Shown: in pieces, positions 3,678 to 14,913 of the stretch | Layout: the number at the start of each line of letters is the position of its first letter | Position numbering within the stretch: position 1 is the first letter of the stretch | Made by a program: the position numbers and the translations under genes | From: a virus | Length of the DNA stretch: 15,232 bases | Reading direction: 5' to 3' (one strand) | Virus genome (UHGV): UHGV-1764584 | The notes under the pieces: generated by a model | Seen by the model: only the letters and a program-made list of their open reading frames with translations | Databases searched by the model: none | Told to the model about the DNA's origin: nothing

Positions 3678-4189
3678 TGATGGCCCCCGTCATTTCTGGT
3701 GCTTTTCACCGTGCGGCTTCTTAAAAACCTGCCATCACGAACAACAGACACTTCTCGTTTACCCAACCTCATTTCACGGCGGTAACATTCAGAAAATGCC
3801 TCGTCCGGCATCATATAAATGCGACGCTTCGCCTCCGTATCCAGAAGGGAACGGCTTGGGGTTACATATAAAAACGACTCATCAATAGGGACCAAACCAC
3901 GAGCAAGAATTGCTGGCAGAATGCCAGGAAGAACGCAGAAAACAGCTCCACGATGCAGCAACATCTGGTACTCCATGACCTCCGTTATCCCCGTGACTAC
4001 TGTTACGGTGTCACGTCTGTTACGGCTGGCAACCAGTCGCTGCACACGTCCAATTTTCTGATCTACAGATAGATGTTTGCTATCGTTATCAATATGATCG
4101 ATAACAAATCCTTTAATCGTTTGATCAAGGTAGTGCACCACCTTCGATTGAATCTGGTGATTATCACCAAAGAAGGCCAGAATCATCAT
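3674..4189 (-). CDS. Hypothetical phage early-operon protein (171 aa)
   Basis: Intact ORF with ATGA overlaps to both neighbours. Possibly a nin-region DUF but not recognised with confidence. Confidence 0.45.
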   Translation of the reverse strand: MMILAFFGDNHQIQSKVVHYLDQTIKGFVIDHIDNDSKHLSVDQKIGRVQRLVASRNRRDTVTVVTGITEVMEYQMLLHRGAVFCVLPGILPAILARGLVPIDESFLYVTPSRSLLDTEAKRRIYMMPDEAFSECYRREMRLGKREVSVVRDGRFLRSRTVKSTRNDGGHQ

Positions 4190-6103: not shown

Positions 6104-6127
6104 ACCAAACACATGGAGTCTCGACAA

Positions 6128-6781
6128 ATGACTATCTCTGTAGGTATTTTCAACGGAAAAGGCGGCGTAACCAAATCAACAATTGCCCGTGCTTTAGCAG
6201 TTGCTTATGCAAAGGCTGGCTGGAATGTATGCCTGATCGATATGGATGTGCTTAACGGAACGGTAACGCGTTGGGTACAACGCAGAATGGCCAACAATAT
6301 CGAACCAGCAATCGCGGCGCAGCCGTGCGGCACACCATCACAAGTCCAGAAAATCATCGAATCAGAAGTATACGACCTGGTTATCGTCGATGGCGGTGCC
6401 TACGCATCTGAATCAGTACCGAAGCTCTCTGAATTTCTGGATATGGTTATTTTGCCAACCAGATTCTCTACCGATGACCTGGAAACCACCGTTAACACAG
6501 CTCACGGCATCGTTAAAAAGGGTGTACCAATCAAGAAAATTTGCATGGTGTTTTCCGGCGCGGCTGAAAACGAAGCTGACTATATTGAAGCCCAAGAGTA
6601 CCTGGCTAATACGCCATACTTTGTTGTCGATAAGTACATTCCCCACAAGCCAGCTCTGAGCAAAGCTCAGGATAAGGGCTTAAGCCTCATTGAGTGCTCA
6701 TACGTTGCGCCACGCAAAAAGGCAGACGACGTTATTCAGGGGATTATCAACCAGCTTGAGGCTCTGACTACTGCCGCGTAA
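6128..6781 (+). CDS. parA: ParA-family partition ATPase (small ParF-type)
   Basis: Deviant Walker A GKGGVTKST, Walker A' LIDMD, and VIVDGGAYAS hydrophobic motif. Start chosen at ATG 6128 (GGAG at 6115-6118, 9-nt spacing); the ORF track's 6113 start is 5 codons longer. Confidence 0.8.
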   Translation: MTISVGIFNGKGGVTKSTIARALAVAYAKAGWNVCLIDMDVLNGTVTRWVQRRMANNIEPAIAAQPCGTPSQVQKIIESEVYDLVIVDGGAYASESVPKLSEFLDMVILPTRFSTDDLETTVNTAHGIVKKGVPIKKICMVFSGAAENEADYIEAQEYLANTPYFVVDKYIPHKPALSKAQDKGLSLIECSYVAPRKKADDVIQGIINQLEALTTAA

Positions 6782-7323: not shown

Positions 7324-7446
7324 CTACTTGCTGCTAATGTTTATCGTCACATTCAGAGCGTTATCAGTAATCTTCCAACCCTCCCCATGTGGCGTAAACA
7401 AAGCTCCAGTAACAACGATAAAAATACACATACAGTATTTTTTCAT
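7324..7446 (-). CDS. Candidate 40-aa hydrophobic peptide (MKKYCMCIFIVVTGALFTPHGEGWKITDNALNVTINISSK)
   Basis: ATG at 7446 with AAGGG 7 nt upstream; the SD sits in a GGCC...GGCC hairpin. N-terminal hydrophobic segment. Ends just before the terminator at 7295-7318. The ORF track's 60-aa version begins at a non-ATG codon upstream. Confidence 0.35.
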   Translation of the reverse strand: MKKYCMCIFIVVTGALFTPHGEGWKITDNALNVTINISSK

Positions 7447-7677
7447 TGTATGGCCCTTACAGGCCGTTTCACGACATCCCCACCGACGAAAACAACGCGA
7501 GAGCAAGCACGGCTGCTTGTGCTTGCATGTACGGCAACAGGAAATCCTCCCCTAAAGTCGGTGCCCGGGTGCGAATCGGCGGGAAGGTCCACAGGTATTT
7601 TACGATTATTTTAAGATTAGTAATAGGAAAGAAATTAAACGAAAAAAACAGTTTATTTTCACAAAATCAGTAACCTA

Positions 7678-7733
7678 CCCACAATCTGTGAGTTTGCTGA
7701 CACAACAAGAACCACAATTTTTTGATGTATAAT
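7678..7733 (+). promoter_or_regulatory. Operator-like sites and -10 element upstream of the candidate sRNA / antirepressor operon
   Basis: O6 at 7678-7692 (CCCACA-ATC-TGTGAG, close to O2) and half-site O7 at 7711-7716. TATAAT at 7728-7733 is preceded directly by TG. Confidence 0.45.
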
Positions 7734-7738
7734 AGTGG

Positions 7739-7870
7739 ACTATTATTACCTTTTGAGTAAAATCAATTTGCTGCTTGTGCTTGCGTGGTTGTTTATACAA
7801 CAACGTAATGCTGAAAGGACCGCGAATCCGATCAGCACGAAAGAACCGTCCTCAATAGGGCGGTTTTTTT
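7739..7870 (+). ncRNA. Candidate small RNA / terminated leader (about 130 nt)
   Basis: Runs from the TATAAT promoter to a terminator at 7844-7870 (stem AACCGUCC/GGGCGGUU with one G-U pair, loop UCAAUA, then U7). Positions 7770-7787 are complementary to the minus-strand RNA at 7512-7529. Internal hairpin GTTGTT-TATAC-AACAAC at 7788-7804. Confidence 0.35.
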
Positions 7871-8017
7871 GTTTCTGCCTACCAATAAACCCACGCTATG
7901 TGGTTGTCTCTGTTAAAATCCCGCCGTATTGACATGAATGCGCCATTGGTGGACACTTTCCGAGCCGTAGCAAAATCTACGGTCGGGATTGGAACCCCGT
8001 AGACACAATGGCGCATA

Positions 8018-8202: not shown

Positions 8203-8394
8203 ATGACAAACCTACCCCATGACTATTACGTCAACCTCGTAAAGATCCTTCTCAAGAAAGCCTCATACGCCGATAAATTACGCCTGGCTGAAATCATCGA
8301 GCGCGAAGCTATGCGCATCGCCAGCAACGATAACGCTGTTTCTGACGCAAAAATCTCCCTCGTAACCAAAGTTGTTATGGGAGGTGCAAAATGA
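8203..8394 (+). CDS. Small protein (63 aa) translationally coupled to the antirepressor gene
   Basis: AAGGGAA RBS; its stop overlaps the antirepressor ATG (ATGA at 8391). Occupies the position that icd has in P1 immI. No sequence family recognised. Confidence 0.5.
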   Translation: MTNLPHDYYVNLVKILLKKASYADKLRLAEIIEREAMRIASNDNAVSDAKISLVTKVVMGGAK

Positions 8395-9542
8395 AAACGC
8401 TTCCGACCGTTAACACCCTACAGCCTATCCTGCATAATCAGATTCCAGTAATCACAACTGAGCTACTCGCCCGCCTTTATGGAACAGAAGCAATCCGTAT
8501 ACAGCAAAATCACCATGAAAATAAAACTCGGTTCATTGAGGGGAAGCACTTCTTTAAAGCTGTTGGTGATGAACTCAAAAATTTGCGACTAGTTTTAAAC
8601 GAGTCACAAAATGAGGTGCAAATTTCCCCCAAAACTCGCTCTCTCATCCTCTGGACAGAACGCGGGGCTGCACGTCACGCCAAAATGCTTGAAACTAACC
8701 AAGCGTGGGATGTGTTCGAACGGCTGGAAGACTGCTATTTCAACCAGAACGCGCAAACGGCCGCGACCGTAACCGTCTCACCAAACAATGCTCGTGAGGT
8801 TGTCGATACGCTCAACGCCAAACCGATGTTTTACATTAAAGTGTGCAACAACGAGCCACTCACAACCTCAGCCGATGTTGCCCAGGCATTCAGCACCACA
8901 AACAATTCCATCGTTATGGCCATCGATGCGTTACGCATTCCTCGCACAGCTGCGGCGCGTCATTTCTTTAAAGAGCAACGACCGTTGGAAGGAAGCGACC
9001 GCGAAATAACAATCTATCGCATGACAAAAGACGGATTTACCTTGCTCATGGAAAGTATCGACGGTCCAGGCGTGAAGGATATCAAGCTGGCCTACATTGA
9101 AGCCTTTAACGCTATCAGCAGCGTGTTAAAAACACAGTACGAGCGCGATCTGGCTAAACGACTGTACCAGGAAAAAACGATTATCCGCGCGGCAACAGAG
9201 CATAATCGGCTATTAACGGAACCGAACTACAGGAAGGAACTAATCAAGGAGTTTGACAAGGCAACAGGGAAAACCAAAGCGGCGCTAAGTCTGCCAGCAA
9301 TGACTCAGGAAAATGTGATATCAGCCTTACTTCTTGATCTGCTCAGAAACGCCAGAGCACTTATCAGCTTTGACGAAAACCTGAATCCTCAGCTCAAGCT
9401 ACTACCACCGACAGGCAAAGTAGTCGACCAGGCTGATCACAACAGCATACTCAGCGTACTGGATGCAAACCTGCCAGCCAGGACACTACAGGATCTGATA
9501 AAAACATGTGCTGATAAGCTGGCACAGAAAAGCAGACCATAA
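8391..9542 (+). CDS. Phage antirepressor (N-terminal ORF6N domain plus Rha/AntA-like domain)
   Basis: N-terminal IPVITTELLARLYGTEAIRIQQNHHENKTRFIEGKHFFK...LILWTERGAARHAKMLETNQAWDVFERLEDCYF is a classic ORF6N pattern. Middle PLTTSADVAQAFSTTNNSIVMAIDAL is Rha/AntA-like. Confidence 0.8.
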   Translation: MKTLPTVNTLQPILHNQIPVITTELLARLYGTEAIRIQQNHHENKTRFIEGKHFFKAVGDELKNLRLVLNESQNEVQISPKTRSLILWTERGAARHAKMLETNQAWDVFERLEDCYFNQNAQTAATVTVSPNNAREVVDTLNAKPMFYIKVCNNEPLTTSADVAQAFSTTNNSIVMAIDALRIPRTAAARHFFKEQRPLEGSDREITIYRMTKDGFTLLMESIDGPGVKDIKLAYIEAFNAISSVLKTQYERDLAKRLYQEKTIIRAATEHNRLLTEPNYRKELIKEFDKATGKTKAALSLPAMTQENVISALLLDLLRNARALISFDENLNPQLKLLPPTGKVVDQADHNSILSVLDANLPARTLQDLIKTCADKLAQKSRP

Positions 9543-9579: not shown

Positions 9580-10279
9580 ATCAACACCAGAGACTTTCTG
9601 AAAATCCTTTCGAATAGCGTCAGCGTCACGCGCCAAGCCCATACTCGAACGTGTCGCCATATGACGAAAATGATCAACTGCCGGAAACAAAGAAATAATG
9701 GACCCAATAGCTTGCAGCAAACTCGCTTTTCTACGCATCATAATTCCACCATAACCGATAACCACCCTTCAGACACAACCCCCCCTCCCCCCATACAGGG
9801 TGCCCTTTACCGGAGTTCCGGCCCCTTCTCAAAAGCATCAAAAAAAGCTCGAGATCGAGTACCGGAACTCATGCCACCAGATAGCTCCACATCGTTTCCA
9901 ATGCTTCGCCGCCGTGTGCGCCCTGTGGCCCACAATCATGCCATTGGTCGTCTGATATACCTTCTTCTGCTCATAGAGCACAGGCGAGTTGTCGCACTCC
10001 TGCCTTTCTCAGACTCGACTTAGTTTAGATCGCTGTTCCTGGCTTGCGTCAGCACACTTTCCCCTTGTACGCATACCCGCGCGCCACTTCGCCCAAAAAC
10101 ACCGAACCCAACGAAGTGGCAAAGACAACGACGCGAGCGTGAGTCTGAAATGGGCACCAGTAAAAAAGGGGTTGCAGGCGCAAAAAGATTTGATTATCTT
10201 TAGACGCAAGAAAGCCGCCCCAATCAAGAGGTGTCTTTTTAAATCCAGCCTACCAAGCAAGATTTAAATTTCAGACTGA

Positions 10280-10310
10280 AAACCGCCCGGCAAGGCGGTT
10301 TTTGTCTTTC
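10280..10310. terminator. Terminator hairpin, usable in both directions
   Basis: 8-bp stem AAACCGCC/GGCGGTTT with loop CGGCAA. A T-run follows on the plus strand and an A-run precedes it. Lies about 50 nt downstream of the minus-strand XRE gene stop. Confidence 0.5.
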
Positions 10311-10351: not shown

Positions 10352-10624
10352 TCATTTGATCCCTTGTTCCAATTCTGCCGACACTTTAACCTTTTCCCAT
10401 ACAAGGGTTTGCAGCCTTAACAGAATCGCATCTTTATCAAGGTGTGAAAGATCCTTAACCATATCGTCAAACGACAGAACGCGAATGGCCATCTCAATGA
10501 CCCTCGGCGGCTCCCCCTTCTCATATCGCTTATATGTAGCCAACGATATCCCAAACTCTTCGGCTGCTCGCTCCTGCGTCCAGTTCATCCCACGACGCCA
10601 TAATTTCAATTCGTAACCCGTCAT
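10352..10624 (-). CDS. XRE-family HTH transcriptional regulator (90 aa)
   Basis: MTGYELKLWRRGMNWTQERAAEEFGISLATYKRYEKGE is a canonical XRE HTH. Divergent from gene 10726-11151. Confidence 0.7.
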   Translation of the reverse strand: MTGYELKLWRRGMNWTQERAAEEFGISLATYKRYEKGEPPRVIEMAIRVLSFDDMVKDLSHLDKDAILLRLQTLVWEKVKVSAELEQGIK

Positions 10625-10725
10625 TACATCCTCTACCTTTCCCTAGATATTCAATAAATTAGACATAGCCACTCACGACAAAATAAGATGTATTAACAAT
10701 CCAATCTTTAGGCTTTAGGTAAAAA

Positions 10726-11151
10726 ATGAGTTCATCTGCTTTTGTCACCGTGGTCACTGGTGTAAGTGTTTTTGTTCTAGGCCAACTCATCGTCAAAGGA
10801 GCTATTGAGCCTTACATTTCATTCAGGGAACAACTAGGGAAAATATCCAATCTGTTATTATGTAACCAAGCAAAAATAGTGAATCCTGGCTCGAACTTAA
10901 AGCCAGAAATCATTCATGATCTAAAAGATTCCGCAGCACAGTTAATGGCGAAATATTCCACTTTACCTTTCTATATCAAAAAGTTACATATCGGCTTTCG
11001 TCTTGTTCCATCAGCCACCGAGATTCTTGGGGCAGCTCAAAATTTGAACTATATAGCGTCAATACATGAAGGTAAGACTGGGGAGAATCCATCTAAGCAT
11101 CTCGAAGAGATTGGCCATATGCTCAAAATACCAACTACCTATTCAAGCTAA
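10726..11151 (+). CDS. Hypothetical membrane-anchored protein (141 aa) in an AT-rich segment
   Basis: AGGT RBS; N-terminal hydrophobic helix (AFVTVVTGVSVFVLGQLIV) followed by a soluble domain. Visibly lower GC than its flanks. No family recognised. Confidence 0.5.
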   Translation: MSSSAFVTVVTGVSVFVLGQLIVKGAIEPYISFREQLGKISNLLLCNQAKIVNPGSNLKPEIIHDLKDSAAQLMAKYSTLPFYIKKLHIGFRLVPSATEILGAAQNLNYIASIHEGKTGENPSKHLEEIGHMLKIPTTYSS

Positions 11152-11219
11152 CCCAATGTAAGTTATCGGCTTGCCCCACAATAAGTTATCTATCTTCAAA
11201 CGCCCCCTATATTAACACT

Positions 11220-11246
11220 CGCAAAGTGTCAAAATGACACTTTGCG
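11220..11246. promoter_or_regulatory. Perfect 12-bp-arm palindrome (CGCAAAGTGTCA-AAA-TGACACTTTGCG) between convergent genes
   Basis: Seen directly. Fifteen nucleotides of it (TCAAAATGACACTTT) recur exactly at 2316-2330 at the 3' end of the Q-like gene. Could be a terminator hairpin or a dimer operator. Confidence 0.45.
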
Positions 11247-11254
11247 CATTGTGT

Positions 11255-11635
11255 TTACTTAACGAGGAATAAAAATGGTTTATTGTTCGGCGGTGTAATC
11301 GGGGCTGGCTCGCTTTTGCTCATGCGATCAGTGTACCAGGCCAACTCCTTGTCAAAGTAAGCCTGATTAAAATAGGCCATGAATGTAGTTTCAAATCCAT
11401 AACGACCGCTAATACGCAGCATCTGATTGCCGTTCTCTGTTTCCAGATATACCTGGGCACGTTCCTGATTCTCCTTCAGCCAGGTTAAAGCCTCATCGCA
11501 TGAGGACACACGATACTCATCATCGTAGCAGTCATCGATGCGGCTTGAGGAAGAACGGCAAATCACGCCAACAGAACCAGCCAGGATAGTTTGAATTTTA
11601 AGGAAAGCGTTTTTGCGGATTTTAATCATGCTCAT
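11255..11635 (-). CDS. Hypothetical 126-aa protein with signal-peptide-like N-terminus
   Basis: Intact ORF with GGAG 8 nt upstream. N-terminal basic then hydrophobic stretch (KIRKNAFLKIQTILAGSVGVIC), three Cys in the following 25 residues. Driven by copy B of the duplicated leader module. Confidence 0.55.
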   Translation of the reverse strand: MSMIKIRKNAFLKIQTILAGSVGVICRSSSSRIDDCYDDEYRVSSCDEALTWLKENQERAQVYLETENGNQMLRISGRYGFETTFMAYFNQAYFDKELAWYTDRMSKSEPAPITPPNNKPFLFLVK

Positions 11636-11798: not shown

Positions 11799-12098
11799 TC
11801 AGATGTTAAACGCTATTCGTTTTCCTGTGGGAAGCTCAACATCCAGGCTTAATTTGCCTCCCATAGCTTCAACGTAACGCTTTAATGTCGCCAGCTTTAA
11901 ATCATTTCCGCGCTGCTCCAGCTTTGTTACTGCTGGCTGGCTTATACCCATCGCCTCAGCAACCTGTTTTTGTGATAACTGGAGTTCTTCACGCATCATC
12001 TGCAAGCCGACCTCAAGAATCATCTCATCTGCCATTTCTTTAATTCGCGCCTGGCTTTCCGGTGAACGGCTGGCAATCGCCTCATCTAATGTTCTCAT
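11799..12098 (-). CDS. HigA-like HTH antitoxin (addiction-module antidote, XRE family)
   Basis: 99 aa with HTH (LSQKQVAEAMGISQPAVTKLEQ). Overlaps the upstream toxin gene by 1 nt; toxin-first order is typical of HigBA. Confidence 0.6.
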   Translation of the reverse strand: MRTLDEAIASRSPESQARIKEMADEMILEVGLQMMREELQLSQKQVAEAMGISQPAVTKLEQRGNDLKLATLKRYVEAMGGKLSLDVELPTGKRIAFNI

Positions 12099-12451
12099 TA
12101 CTTGCTCTCCAGTGTGTTCAGATGTGCTGCAAACTCATCCTCAGCTATACGCACCAGTTTTTCATAAAACCGCTTATCGTTACTTTTGTCTCCTGCACAA
12201 AGAACGATGGCCCGGCGAATCGGATCGAACGCATAAAAGGCTCTTATCGGACGGCCAGAAAACTGAACGCGAAGCTCTTTCATATTTTTGTACCGAGAAC
12301 CTTTTACGGTATCGGCATATGGCCTGGGTAACTCAGGTCCGTAAACCTGTAGCTTTTTCAAATCAGCCAAAACCTTTTCCTGAAGAGCGTCTTCTTGCTC
12401 ATTTAGCCAGTCGTCAAATCGCTGGCTAAAAAGTACCGTCCACATGCTCAA
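12098..12451 (-). CDS. RelE/ParE-superfamily toxin, HigB-like (addiction-module killer protein)
   Basis: 117 aa; the motif AIVLCAGDKSNDKRFYEKLVRIAEDEF matches the recalled LLCGGDKS pattern of these toxins. AGGA RBS. Confidence 0.6.
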   Translation of the reverse strand: MSMWTVLFSQRFDDWLNEQEDALQEKVLADLKKLQVYGPELPRPYADTVKGSRYKNMKELRVQFSGRPIRAFYAFDPIRRAIVLCAGDKSNDKRFYEKLVRIAEDEFAAHLNTLESK

Positions 12452-12979: not shown

Positions 12980-13275
12980 ACATCTGTTTTGTTATCAATG
13001 AAGATTAACCCTAACCCAGCGAAGTAACACAGCAGCGCCCAGGCTGCATACGGAATGCTGGATCTGGATGTGGACTCCTTTAACATCTGCCAGTTGCGAA
13101 CATTGCGACTATCTTTTAAGCCAAGTTTTTTGGCCAACTGCGAGCCGCTCATTCCGGTCAGGCCAATGACTGCCCGAACTTCTCCACATGTAGGAGATTC
13201 CCATTCATCCGCTTTTTTTAAACAAGCCGGATTCAACATTTTTAAAACAGTATCTTTATCCATAACCATCTCCAT
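12976..13275 (-). CDS. Small HTH-containing protein with C-terminal hydrophobic segment (99 aa)
   Basis: HTH-like GLTGMSGSQLAKKLGLKDSRNVRNWQ; C-terminal IPYAAWALLCYFAGLGLIF looks like a membrane anchor. Confidence 0.45.
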   Translation of the reverse strand: MEMVMDKDTVLKMLNPACLKKADEWESPTCGEVRAVIGLTGMSGSQLAKKLGLKDSRNVRNWQMLKESTSRSSIPYAAWALLCYFAGLGLIFIDNKTDV

Positions 13276-13509
13276 TTATTATATCTACGATGGTAGGAAA
13301 TCTTTTCCTATGTGGCAATAGAAATTTACTACATTGCGTATAAGACAAGTTTTCTATGTCTAATAGGAAATGATGTTTCTTACGTTTTATCGCGTTCTGA
13401 TGGCTACTGTGTGCGTATTTATCGACGTTTATTGATAAGGCTCGCCCCTTCCTCCTGCAAAGCCCGGCCGTAGGCCTTATTTCGGCCTTATATAAATTGA
13501 TTTTGTATA

Positions 13510-13622
13510 GTTCGAAACGCGCCGTTTCGAAAAGGATGATCAGGCTGCTCCATGCCTCCGGCAAGTGCCGGAGGAGGTATATTTGAGCGTAGCGACTCGA
13601 ACCGGCGCGAGCTTTAGCTCGC
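13510..13622. repeat. Cluster of GC-rich perfect palindromes downstream of the origin
   Basis: TTCGAAACG-CGC-CGTTTCGAA (13510-13530), CCTCCGGCA-AG-TGCCGGAGG (13555-13574), GCGAGCT-TT-AGCTCGC (13607-13622). Confidence 0.5.
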
Positions 13623-13639
13623 TGCAAGGGCGAACATAT

Positions 13640-13900
13640 TCACAGGCAAAGCCTGCGTAAGTTAAATAAAGAAAGTTTTAATAAAAGAAAGTGATTTTGC
13701 ATTTATTTGTTTAGTGCATCTATTATAAAAAACCATTTGCATATACATATCAAAACTGTGGATAACTTTATTAGCCGATGCCTGTAAAGGCGATATTTTT
13801 GCTGTGTTCAGGTTTAGAGAAAATTAATTTAGATTGTTTTTTGAACAGATATTTTATTGCGACGTAGATAATCCTCCGGTAAAACCGGATTCATCATTCA
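13640..13900. other. Candidate IncFII-type vegetative origin (oriR-like AT-rich region with DnaA box)
   Basis: Immediately downstream of repA. Perfect DnaA box TTATCCACA (rc of 13757-13765), strongly AT-rich, direct repeat AAAGAAAGT at 13669-13677 and 13683-13691. Confidence 0.5.
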
Positions 13901-13906
13901 GGTGGG

Positions 13907-14755
13907 TTAATGTTGGAGTGATTTCCAGGTCTTTCTTAGCCTGTTATAACGCTGCTCAACGAGGGAGCGTAAATATGCAAGGTCAGCACCAGGATACATG
14001 CCATCAGCAAATTCCTGGCTAACCTCTCTAGTGATTTGATGGCGAAGTTCGGCCTCTCCCTTTTCCTGAACAAGACGCGCAGCTCTCTCCGCTGCTTTCT
14101 GTTTTGCCTTTATCTCTCTGGCCGTCTTCCTCTGACGCCATACATTCTCCATCTGCTCCTGAATAACAATACGCTTATAATCAGCCTCCGTTATCGCTTT
14201 TTTAAGCCGTTCGCTATTCTTCGCATTGAAGTAATTAAGTTTCTGGCTAACCGCACGTCTCCATGCTTGTTCAGTAATACCAACTGTTTCCAGCAGTTGA
14301 TCACGAATCTCGATTTTCGCTGGCCAATACTGTTTATTCACCCGATCCCAGCGACGTTCATAATCAATAAAACCTAACTCTTTCAGTTGCGACAACGCCC
14401 TTGTACAGCGCGTTATAGACTTGTTCCCAGCTTCGGATACGGTAGACAGGCCGCAAAAATCAGCCAACGCCTCAGCACTGGCCAGAACCCGCTTAGAAAT
14501 GATGTTTACATGGTGCAAAATCGCAGCAATCACAGCATTAATCGCCCGACGACGATGCTCGTTTATCCGGCGTTTCCGCTCTGACGGTTGATTAACGTAG
14601 AACGCAACCTCACACGTAAGATCACGACCATTAATGCGCTGTAAAGCATCAGATAACACCAGCGGCAGCTTGTGCGTATGGTGCTTTGGAGGCTGGAACT
14701 CCGGCGACAAATTACAAACGTAAGCTGAACGTAGAGACGGCATTGGTCTATCCAT
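13907..14755 (-). CDS. repA: IncFII-family replication initiator RepA1
   Basis: RRRAINAVIAAILHH...VLASAEALADFCGLSTVSEAGNKSITRCTRALSQLKELGFIDYERRWD aligns by eye with R100/R1 RepA1. Start set at the internal Met (MDRPMPS), giving 282 aa against about 285 for RepA1; the open frame extends to 14899. Confidence 0.8.
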   Translation of the reverse strand: MDRPMPSLRSAYVCNLSPEFQPPKHHTHKLPLVLSDALQRINGRDLTCEVAFYVNQPSERKRRINEHRRRAINAVIAAILHHVNIISKRVLASAEALADFCGLSTVSEAGNKSITRCTRALSQLKELGFIDYERRWDRVNKQYWPAKIEIRDQLLETVGITEQAWRRAVSQKLNYFNAKNSERLKKAITEADYKRIVIQEQMENVWRQRKTAREIKAKQKAAERAARLVQEKGEAELRHQITREVSQEFADGMYPGADLAYLRSLVEQRYNRLRKTWKSLQH

Positions 14756-14765
14756 ATGTTCGCTC

Positions 14766-14882
14766 TTGCGTCCACGGAAAACCAACGTATAATGGGAGTT
14801 GTCGAGGCGCCCATGGTTAGTTGTTGGTTTTCCTTTCCGTGGATGTCGCAAGAAGCCCGCAGATTTATCTGCGGGCTTTTTG
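14766..14882 (+). ncRNA. CopA-like antisense RNA with its promoter, opposite the repA leader
   Basis: -35 TTGCGT (14766-14771), 16 bp, -10 TATAAT (14788-14793). Terminator stem AAGCCCGCAGA/TCTGCGGGCTT (14853-14878) followed by TTTTTGTTT. The RNA would be about 83 nt, complementary to the region 45-130 nt upstream of the repA start. Confidence 0.55.
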
Positions 14883-14913
14883 TTTCCATATCTGGTCACT
14901 TTTCAACCAGACA

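Follow-up and report, generated by a model that had tools for sequence, protein, structure and literature searches.

We analyzed a stretch of 15,232 nucleotides (nt) from the virus genome UHGV-1764584 (referred to as the window here), with a focus on an AT-rich segment that carries a single open reading frame (ORF) of 141 amino acids (positions 10726 to 11151, + strand; WP_016240784.1). Divergent from this ORF lies a gene for a 90-amino-acid XRE/HTH_3 protein (10352 to 10624, − strand; Pfam HTH_3 and HTH_31; phrog_6962), the two start codons being 101 bp apart. On the other side lies the gene of a 126-amino-acid protein (11255 to 11635, − strand) that matches phrog_8090, a PHROG family of unknown function. 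A first-pass annotation had described an AT-rich segment with an XRE gene and a divergent, membrane-anchored ORF and had taken the XRE repressor and the membrane protein for one acquired cassette. Both ORFs are present as described, and the G+C content of the segment is 38.8%, compared with 46.0% for the window. The segment itself, however, is a separately acquired single-gene insertion found in one sublineage of a phage-plasmid, and the HTH gene belongs to the backbone into which it landed.

Over the 1.8 kb tested, the window is 100% identical to the Escherichia coli plasmid p48 (NZ_CP023368), and ∼60 further nonmobilizable plasmids of 46 to 52 kb, among them that of E. coli ATCC 25922 (48.5 kb), share 97.6 to 99.5% identity with the same region, as do the Yersinia phages vB_YpM_39, 41, and 44. 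Given that some relatives were thus isolated as phages, we regard the window as part of a ∼48-kb nonmobilizable E. coli phage-plasmid with an IncFII-type RepA. Membership in the pSLy3 group, which was initially suspected, was dropped; that group falls within the SSU5 supergroup.

Alignment with the insert-less plasmid pHN68-3 and with Yersinia phage vB_YpM_41 placed the inserted segment, to which no strand is assigned, at positions 10625 to 11208. Divergence from the insert-less backbone spans 10634 to 11208 (∼575 bp), and positions 10625 to 10626 differ as well. In pHN68-3, a 63-nt spacer separates the start codon of the HTH gene from the stop codon of the 126-amino-acid gene, and the insert takes the place of 8 nt (CTCGCACA) within this spacer. 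The distance between the two genes is 63 nt in ∼50 plasmid relatives and in phage vB_YpM_39 versus 630 nt in the window. The full 1.8-kb query was covered in only 12 of the 62 plasmid relatives, the remaining ones giving a two-piece match that spans 1,229 to 1,237 bp instead of the 1,801 bp of the window. All 12 copies of the insert are at least 99% identical to one another, which fits a single acquisition. The separate acquisition proposed in the first-pass annotation is therefore borne out, since the segment is a present/absent polymorphism among relatives, with boundaries set by alignment, and not merely a stretch of unusual composition.

As for composition, the segment from 10625 to 11207 (38.8% G+C) compares with a mean of 46.0% ± 2.9% (standard deviation) over 583-bp intervals of the window, only 0.9% of which reach the AT richness of the insert, the remainder of these being confined to ∼13.2 to 13.9 kb. 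This sole other stretch of matching AT richness (13191 to 13950, with G+C falling to 32% at 13651 to 13950) lies immediately upstream of the IncFII-type repA gene (13907 to 14899, − strand) and presumably represents a replication-control or origin region, not a second insertion.

The identical intergenic site is occupied in vB_YpM_41 and 44 by an element of ∼320 bp that lacks an ORF and is different from the insert. In vB_YpM_41 (locus L003), this element covers positions 3729 to 4046, at the site that equals window positions 10625 to 11208. Its 38-bp terminal inverted repeats are 92% complementary, start with GGGGTTCCGTGGG (GGGG first), and look like the ends of Tn3-family transposons. Because a second, Tn3-type miniature element occupies it in two Yersinia phages, the site between the 126-amino-acid and HTH genes is one that tolerates insertions. 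Parts of the ∼320-bp element were found in 166 of 5,426 complete E. coli genomes, nearly always plasmid-borne and sometimes with an adjoining resolvase gene.

The 90-amino-acid protein passes the Pfam models HTH_3 (29.8 bits, cutoff of 23; E value of 6e-7) and HTH_31 (27.6 bits, cutoff of 27). In insert-less plasmids, its gene is the last in a one-strand order of HigB, HigA, the 126-amino-acid gene, and the HTH gene. Diverged relatives from Salmonella and Citrobacter also carry the HTH gene, at 69 to 74% identity. The Salmonella element retains the backbone order with an HTH protein that is 69% identical, the Citrobacter element has the HTH gene beside HigA and lacks the 126-amino-acid gene, and neither of them contains the 141-amino-acid gene. 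Because the HTH gene is kept in the insert-less relatives and in these diverged elements, it is part of the backbone of this phage-plasmid lineage and lies outside the acquired unit. The divergent layout of the HTH gene and the 141-amino-acid ORF is a by-product of the landing site. When searched with PADLOC-DB v2, the HTH protein gave only a chance-level match (mad1; E value of 0.026), and its scores against MqsA and HipB-type models were far under the cutoffs. Neither the HTH protein nor the 126-amino-acid protein has a relative in the PDB by sequence, and the latter had no match in the Pfam, NCBIfam, and PADLOC scans.

The HigB(Gp49)/HigA toxin-antitoxin pair of the window (11799 to 12451, − strand; Pfam HigB-like Gp49 with an E value of 6e-23 and HigA-like HTH_3/HTH_37) adjoins the region of the HTH gene and the insert. 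There is a one-base overlap between higB and higA at 12098, and the pair was kept in every relative examined, including the Salmonella and Citrobacter elements. Other genes of the window encode ParA (6113 to 6781) and an ORF6N/Rha protein (8391 to 9542).

A consensus scan identified a σ70-like promoter for the 141-amino-acid gene at positions 10660 to 10689 (+ strand; TAGACA, 18 nt, TAAGAT), ending 36 nt ahead of the ATG. The −35 hexamer TAGACA and the −10 hexamer TA(A/G)GAT stand at an equal position upstream of the gene in phage-plasmid D6, pAPEC-O1-ColBM, and an IncX4 plasmid and in plasmids of Salmonella, Leclercia, Citrobacter, and Pantoea. The hexamers accompany the gene in 9 of 10 contexts; beyond them, the flanking sequences bear no relation to those of the window. 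We infer that this conserved sequence is active as a promoter. Downstream, in the backbone and outside the insert, lies a perfect palindrome with 12-bp arms, CGCAAAGTGTCA-AAA-TGACACTTTGCG (11220 to 11246, no strand assigned), which is unique in the window (0 expected by chance) and also present in pHN68-3 and vB_YpM_41. It scores as terminator-like for + strand transcripts leaving the 141-amino-acid gene and is thus a candidate terminator for them. In insert-less relatives, this palindrome, which contains a TTGACA, precedes the HTH start by 28 nt, and besides terminating transcription it could act as an operator or promoter for HTH expression. The insertion has moved the palindrome and its TTGACA away from the HTH gene, whose expression may be altered. 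Just 3′ of the HTH gene, a GC-rich hairpin flanked by T/A runs (10277 to 10304, no strand assigned) looks like a two-way terminator. The region of the HTH gene and the insert is bracketed by these two hairpins.

The first-pass annotation had found no recognizable family for the 141-amino-acid protein. This stands as far as Pfam, NCBIfam, and PADLOC-DB v2 (no match at an E value of ≤1) are concerned, and 67 diverse members of the family likewise gave 0 Pfam families. However, the protein matches phrog_7512 (function unknown) from end to end (E value of 2.8e-74; residues 1 to 141 on profile positions 1 to 141), and a search of 1.84 billion representative proteins with the family profile retrieved 705 clusters at an E value of ≤1e-3, 125 of them at ≤1e-10, almost all of 130 to 180 amino acids. 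With PADLOC, no defense model matched either this protein or the HTH protein beyond chance. The ratio of nonsynonymous to synonymous substitution rates (dN/dS) was 0.11 to 0.19 at dS values of 0.9 to 2.4 across six homologues with 61 to 75% protein identity, homologues are 139 to 149 amino acids long, and 32 positions are invariant across 23 sequences. Judging from these patterns, the ORF is a real gene under purifying selection.

Relatives of this gene at the DNA level were found in 345 PLSDB plasmids, 263 of which are conjugative. It occurs in 333 of the 5,426 complete E. coli genomes (∼6%), with 336 of 340 copies being plasmid-borne, and its carriers include virulence plasmids of the ColV/ColBM type as well as IncX4 plasmids. 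Of 50,697 phage records, that of phage-plasmid D6 alone contains it. IMG/VR contains two copies at 99 to 100% identity and seven at 74% and no others, which we take as the phage-plasmid type of the window and as D6-like contigs, respectively. Distant family members are found in Chromohalobacter, Acidobacteriota genomes, and metagenomes. Many database entries of the family begin 8 codons earlier (MIQSLGTI…; L004, 6001 to 6024; L012, 6001 to 6024; L017, 3988 to 4011; and other members), at an ATG that sits just 6 to 7 nt past the conserved −10 hexamer and that neither the window copy nor the D6 copy has. Either this start is miscalled, or the mRNA of these copies is leaderless.

To gain an idea of the shape of the product, we predicted its structure with AlphaFold2 from the family alignment (predicted local distance difference test, 79; predicted template modeling score, 0.71). 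A long helix (residues 4 to 46) begins with a hydrophobic anchor of ∼23 residues and is followed by three further helices, giving a four-helix bundle of ∼115 residues. The anchor, at about residues 4 to 26 (nt 10735 to 10803), has a mean Kyte-Doolittle value of 2.2, in agreement with the single-pass membrane protein that had been described from the ORF. In 64 of 67 members, Lys and Arg are in excess in the 15 residues after the anchor compared with those before it (mean of 2.4 versus 0.24). Because of this bias and the positive-inside rule, the product is probably a single-pass inner-membrane protein with its short N terminus outside and the bundle in the cytoplasm. An i-spanin (Rz-like) was therefore rejected, the C-terminal domain being predicted as cytoplasmic in these 64 members, and no holin, endolysin, or o-spanin was seen near the gene in any context. 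Near-invariant residues are G12 and Q20 in the anchor as well as P29, L45, P95, N108, L133, and Y139, and the C terminus has a conserved IPTTY motif. The family alignments contain no conserved His/Asp/Cys/Ser pattern that would hint at catalysis, and structure searches with the model returned generic helical bundles only. Given the lack of conserved catalytic residues but the presence of a conserved polar Gly-Gln pair in the membrane helix, the modeled protein most likely acts by binding another protein or by oligomerizing, not as an enzyme.

The genetic neighborhood of the gene differs between elements. In Salmonella IncX-type plasmids, it is found near Phd/ParE plus an 88-amino-acid gene or near Abi_2; in IncF ColBM and IncX4 plasmids, beside a divergent 159-amino-acid gene and a 500-amino-acid gene; in Leclercia, beside small unknown genes; and in D6, between humD and phd/doc. 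None of these contexts contains an XRE neighbor, and apart from these known genes the neighbors match no Pfam or PADLOC family except for a DpnII-like nuclease two genes off. A large downstream protein was considered as a conserved partner and rejected, since the 500-amino-acid protein of the IncF/IncX4 plasmids is unrelated to the 549-amino-acid protein that follows a distant family member on a metagenome contig (L025, 1758 to 4079). This 549-amino-acid protein shows a weak, subthreshold similarity to the N-terminal domains of STAND-type NTPases (nSTAND1, NPHP3_N). Domains of this type are typical of Avs-like defense proteins. The gene is a stand-alone unit without a conserved partner, and because hundreds of plasmids carry it alone, it probably needs no dedicated neighbor.

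A homologue with 38% identity was found in a P2-like prophage on the chromosome of Chromohalobacter nigrandesensis (L020, 5770 to 8568), and it matches phrog_7512 with an E value of 2.5e-26. It is located in a cargo gap of ∼2.8 kb between the tail-fibre/assembly genes and the sheath, tube, and tape measure genes, a position that we take to correspond to the Z/fun lysogenic-conversion locus of P2. The gap also contains two unknown genes and a DUF1508 gene. Occupying a P2-type hotspot would, by analogy, be a hint of role. Hotspots of P2 are reservoirs of defense genes, for which the old/tin locus has been covered (PMC9122126).

Elsewhere, most plasmids carry the gene between two copies of an element of ∼45 bp, composed of TAATYCCCGCRYCAC and CTGGACrTTCAGGTnATTCTGTCCAG, in which we distinguished a 17-nt leader and a 26-bp motif whose 6-bp inverted arms enclose a 14-nt spacer. 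On the upstream side, the element directly adjoins the −35 hexamer of the gene. Each locus has 3 to 8 copies of the element in uniform orientation, as seen in the arrays of IncF, IncX, and other enterobacterial plasmids at L004 (4864 to 7462), L005 (4657 to 7608), L012 (4991 to 7647), L016 (3017 to 4489), L017 (3363 to 7661), L018 (2086 to 7055), L019 (3805 to 6458), and L027 (8379 to 9043). The modules between elements measure ∼0.13 to 3.2 kb and mostly contain one gene (a few contain none) in either orientation, the module of the 141-amino-acid gene being ∼0.5 kb long. Most module genes match no family, and the arrays mix such genes with toxin-antitoxin and abortive-infection (Abi) genes. 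Blocks of homology between plasmids ended within 20 nt of an element at 129 of 313 internal ends, compared with a random expectation of 9 ± 3, although the mutual similarity of the elements itself favors blocks ending there. The 141-amino-acid module usually spans exactly from one element to the next. A 54-nt query for the element hit at least 1,223 plasmid records, chiefly of conjugative plasmids and from Escherichia, Klebsiella, and Salmonella.

The arrays end beside either a tyrosine recombinase of ∼260 amino acids, which is 85 to 88% identical to ResD of the F plasmid, or a serine resolvase of 218 amino acids. At these ends lies a conserved stretch of ∼90 to 190 bp with a longer variant of the motif, CTGGACATTTCGGCACTATCGGAATAAATGTCCAG (L004, ∼7437 to 7800; L005, ∼7583 to 7947; L012, ∼7622 to 7840; L019, ∼6433 to 6700; L027, ∼9018 to 9220). 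In two Salmonella plasmids, the longer variant is directly upstream of the serine resolvase gene, like a res site, while in other arrays the 3′ end of the ResD orthologue comes next. The repeats may be sites of the resolvase-binding type. Two known sequences were considered and rejected as their identity: the IncN CUP repeat, given that R46 has no copy of the element, and the rfsF site of ResD, given that the element is absent from the F region examined and that the rfsF-homologous region differs from it in sequence and lies on the opposite side of resD. Work on IncI1 and IncR plasmids treats rfsF as a single switch point (PMC8004404, PMC9412624), and we found no description in the literature of the ∼45-bp repeat sequence or of multicopy, cassette-like plasmid arrays. 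Neither the window nor D6 has a detectable copy of the element. A decayed repeat at the left end of the insert (11 of 18 matches by eye) was discarded, the best match in a profile search of the window being located elsewhere (E value of 1.6). The phage-plasmid of the window captured the gene, or has retained it, without such repeats.

Taken together, we favor with moderate confidence an explanation that combines a one-gene insert in a phage-plasmid with a proposed membrane conflict factor. An AT-rich segment of ∼575 bp with a single gene landed in the 63-nt spacer between the codirectional 126-amino-acid and HTH genes. The acquired unit consists of the conserved σ70-like promoter and the 141-amino-acid ORF, stopping before a backbone hairpin that could be used as a terminator. 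Its product is probably a single-pass protein that holds a four-helix bundle at the cytoplasmic face of the inner membrane, where it would exclude or abort incoming phages or plasmids. This last part is the more tentative one: that the protein is a self-sufficient factor for conflict or exclusion between mobile elements is a guess based on its neighbors elsewhere, which include toxin-antitoxin pairs, Abi_2, and a restriction-like nuclease, and on the cargo gap of the P2-like prophage. As a further extension, the gene could be a cassette of an undescribed gene-shuffling platform of enterobacterial plasmids, encoding a new stand-alone membrane exclusion or defense factor, with the repeats recombining modules among IncF, IncX, and other backbones and with secondary capture by two phage-plasmid lineages, those of the window and D6. 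We consider this whole scenario speculative and rather unlikely. If real, the arrays would give plasmids a new route for putting together and trading accessory genes and would also provide a catalogue of candidate conflict genes.

Possible, though doubtful, is that the 141-amino-acid protein serves the plasmid lifestyle and has nothing to do with defense, e.g., by acting on a host inner-membrane protein or the envelope stress response or by membrane tethering, with lower plasmid cost or better maintenance as the outcome. The plasmid location of 99% of the E. coli copies would agree with such a role, as would the neighbors from maintenance regions (ParAB, StbAB, UmuDC, ResD, and a resolvase, as well as humD and phd/doc in D6) and a binding-type bundle without a catalytic motif. 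However, the gene is dispensable for the phage-plasmid, given that 50 of the 62 relatives lack it; distant homologues are found in chromosomes and in the tail-region cargo gap of a prophage, at odds with a plasmid-specific task; and the bias toward plasmids may merely mirror the repeat-bounded arrays that carry the gene.

It is improbable that what matters is regulatory damage, i.e., that the insertion splits a unit of the 126-amino-acid gene, palindrome, and HTH gene and thereby alters HTH expression, with the 141-amino-acid gene as a passenger. The unique palindrome with its TTGACA, 28 nt from the HTH start in relatives, is displaced by ∼575 bp, and a convergent or antisense gene is interposed; the Tn3-type miniature element at the identical site in two Yersinia phages shows that disruption is tolerated there. 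The Shine-Dalgarno sequence and ORF of the HTH gene are nevertheless intact, the Citrobacter relative without the 126-amino-acid gene indicates that the pair is not obligate, and the inserted gene is under purifying selection.

The cassette reading of the first-pass annotation, in which the XRE gene and the membrane protein were acquired as one defense, Abi, or exclusion unit with an effector that is toxic without its regulator, did not survive the comparison of relatives and is now very improbable. The divergent genes with their shared 101-bp control region did speak for it, as did a weak resemblance of the XRE protein to antitoxin-type HTH proteins (MqsA, HipB-like), although all of these scores were far below the cutoffs. 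The two genes are, however, not inherited together across elements: the HTH gene lies outside the insert, ∼50 of 62 relatives as well as the Salmonella and Citrobacter elements have it but lack the ORF, and the ORF occurs without an XRE neighbor on 345 plasmids and in D6. Cells thus tolerate the gene when no dedicated repressor is present, and this speaks against an effector that is toxic without its regulator; the PADLOC scans add no match in favor of a defense cassette. Finally, a decaying or selfish hitchhiker that is functionless for both element and host, for which the patchy distribution and the lack of an annotated function anywhere might speak, is hardly credible in view of the low dN/dS, the narrow length range, the 32 invariant positions, and the conserved promoter.

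For the window, a regulator-effector pair that looked plausible but was false is therefore replaced by a cleanly delimited phage-plasmid moron. When compared with type II toxin-antitoxin systems such as HigBA and MqsRA, the locus shares a small XRE protein beside a small protein of unknown function but differs in that its genes are divergent and not cotranscribed, the pairing is not conserved, and the 141-amino-acid gene is carried alone elsewhere. Together with the lack of a toxin family and antitoxin scores far below the cutoffs, the divergent orientation led us to reject such a pair.

The arrays are a more unusual lead than the moron itself. Like integron cassettes and the pdif modules of Acinetobacter, they consist of short modules with a same-orientation repeat on both sides, in mostly single-gene rows. 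The ∼45-bp element, however, differs by eye from attC, dif/pdif, and CUP, and, unlike in integrons, there is no integron integrase, the modules lie in either orientation, and the 141-amino-acid module has its own predicted promoter. An integron gene cassette was therefore rejected, the recombinases at hand being ResD orthologues or the 218-amino-acid serine resolvase.

Cargo hotspots of P2-like phages offer one parallel, the distant (38%) homologue in such a gap of the Chromohalobacter prophage, although the E. coli 141-amino-acid family is absent from P2-like phages among the phage records searched. Neither sequence similarity nor specific fold similarity links the protein to known exclusion proteins (Imm, Sp, SieA/B, HK97 gp15, and Sie2009). 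Because of its own predicted promoter, the terminator-like hairpin, the deviant composition, and the landing site between two genes that adjoin each other in relatives, the insert has the anatomy of a phage moron, here in a phage-plasmid. The gp15 moron of HK97 reportedly encodes a small single-pass inner-membrane protein for superinfection exclusion. The insert resembles it in having one gene with its own promoter and terminator, a deviant composition, and a small product with one N-terminal membrane helix, but it differs in that the 141-amino-acid family is found almost only on plasmids and phage-plasmids and that the prediction puts its soluble part in the cytoplasm. As a moron in a phage-plasmid, the insert is thus of an ordinary kind, and its cargo is a widespread, constrained, and wholly uncharacterized plasmid gene.

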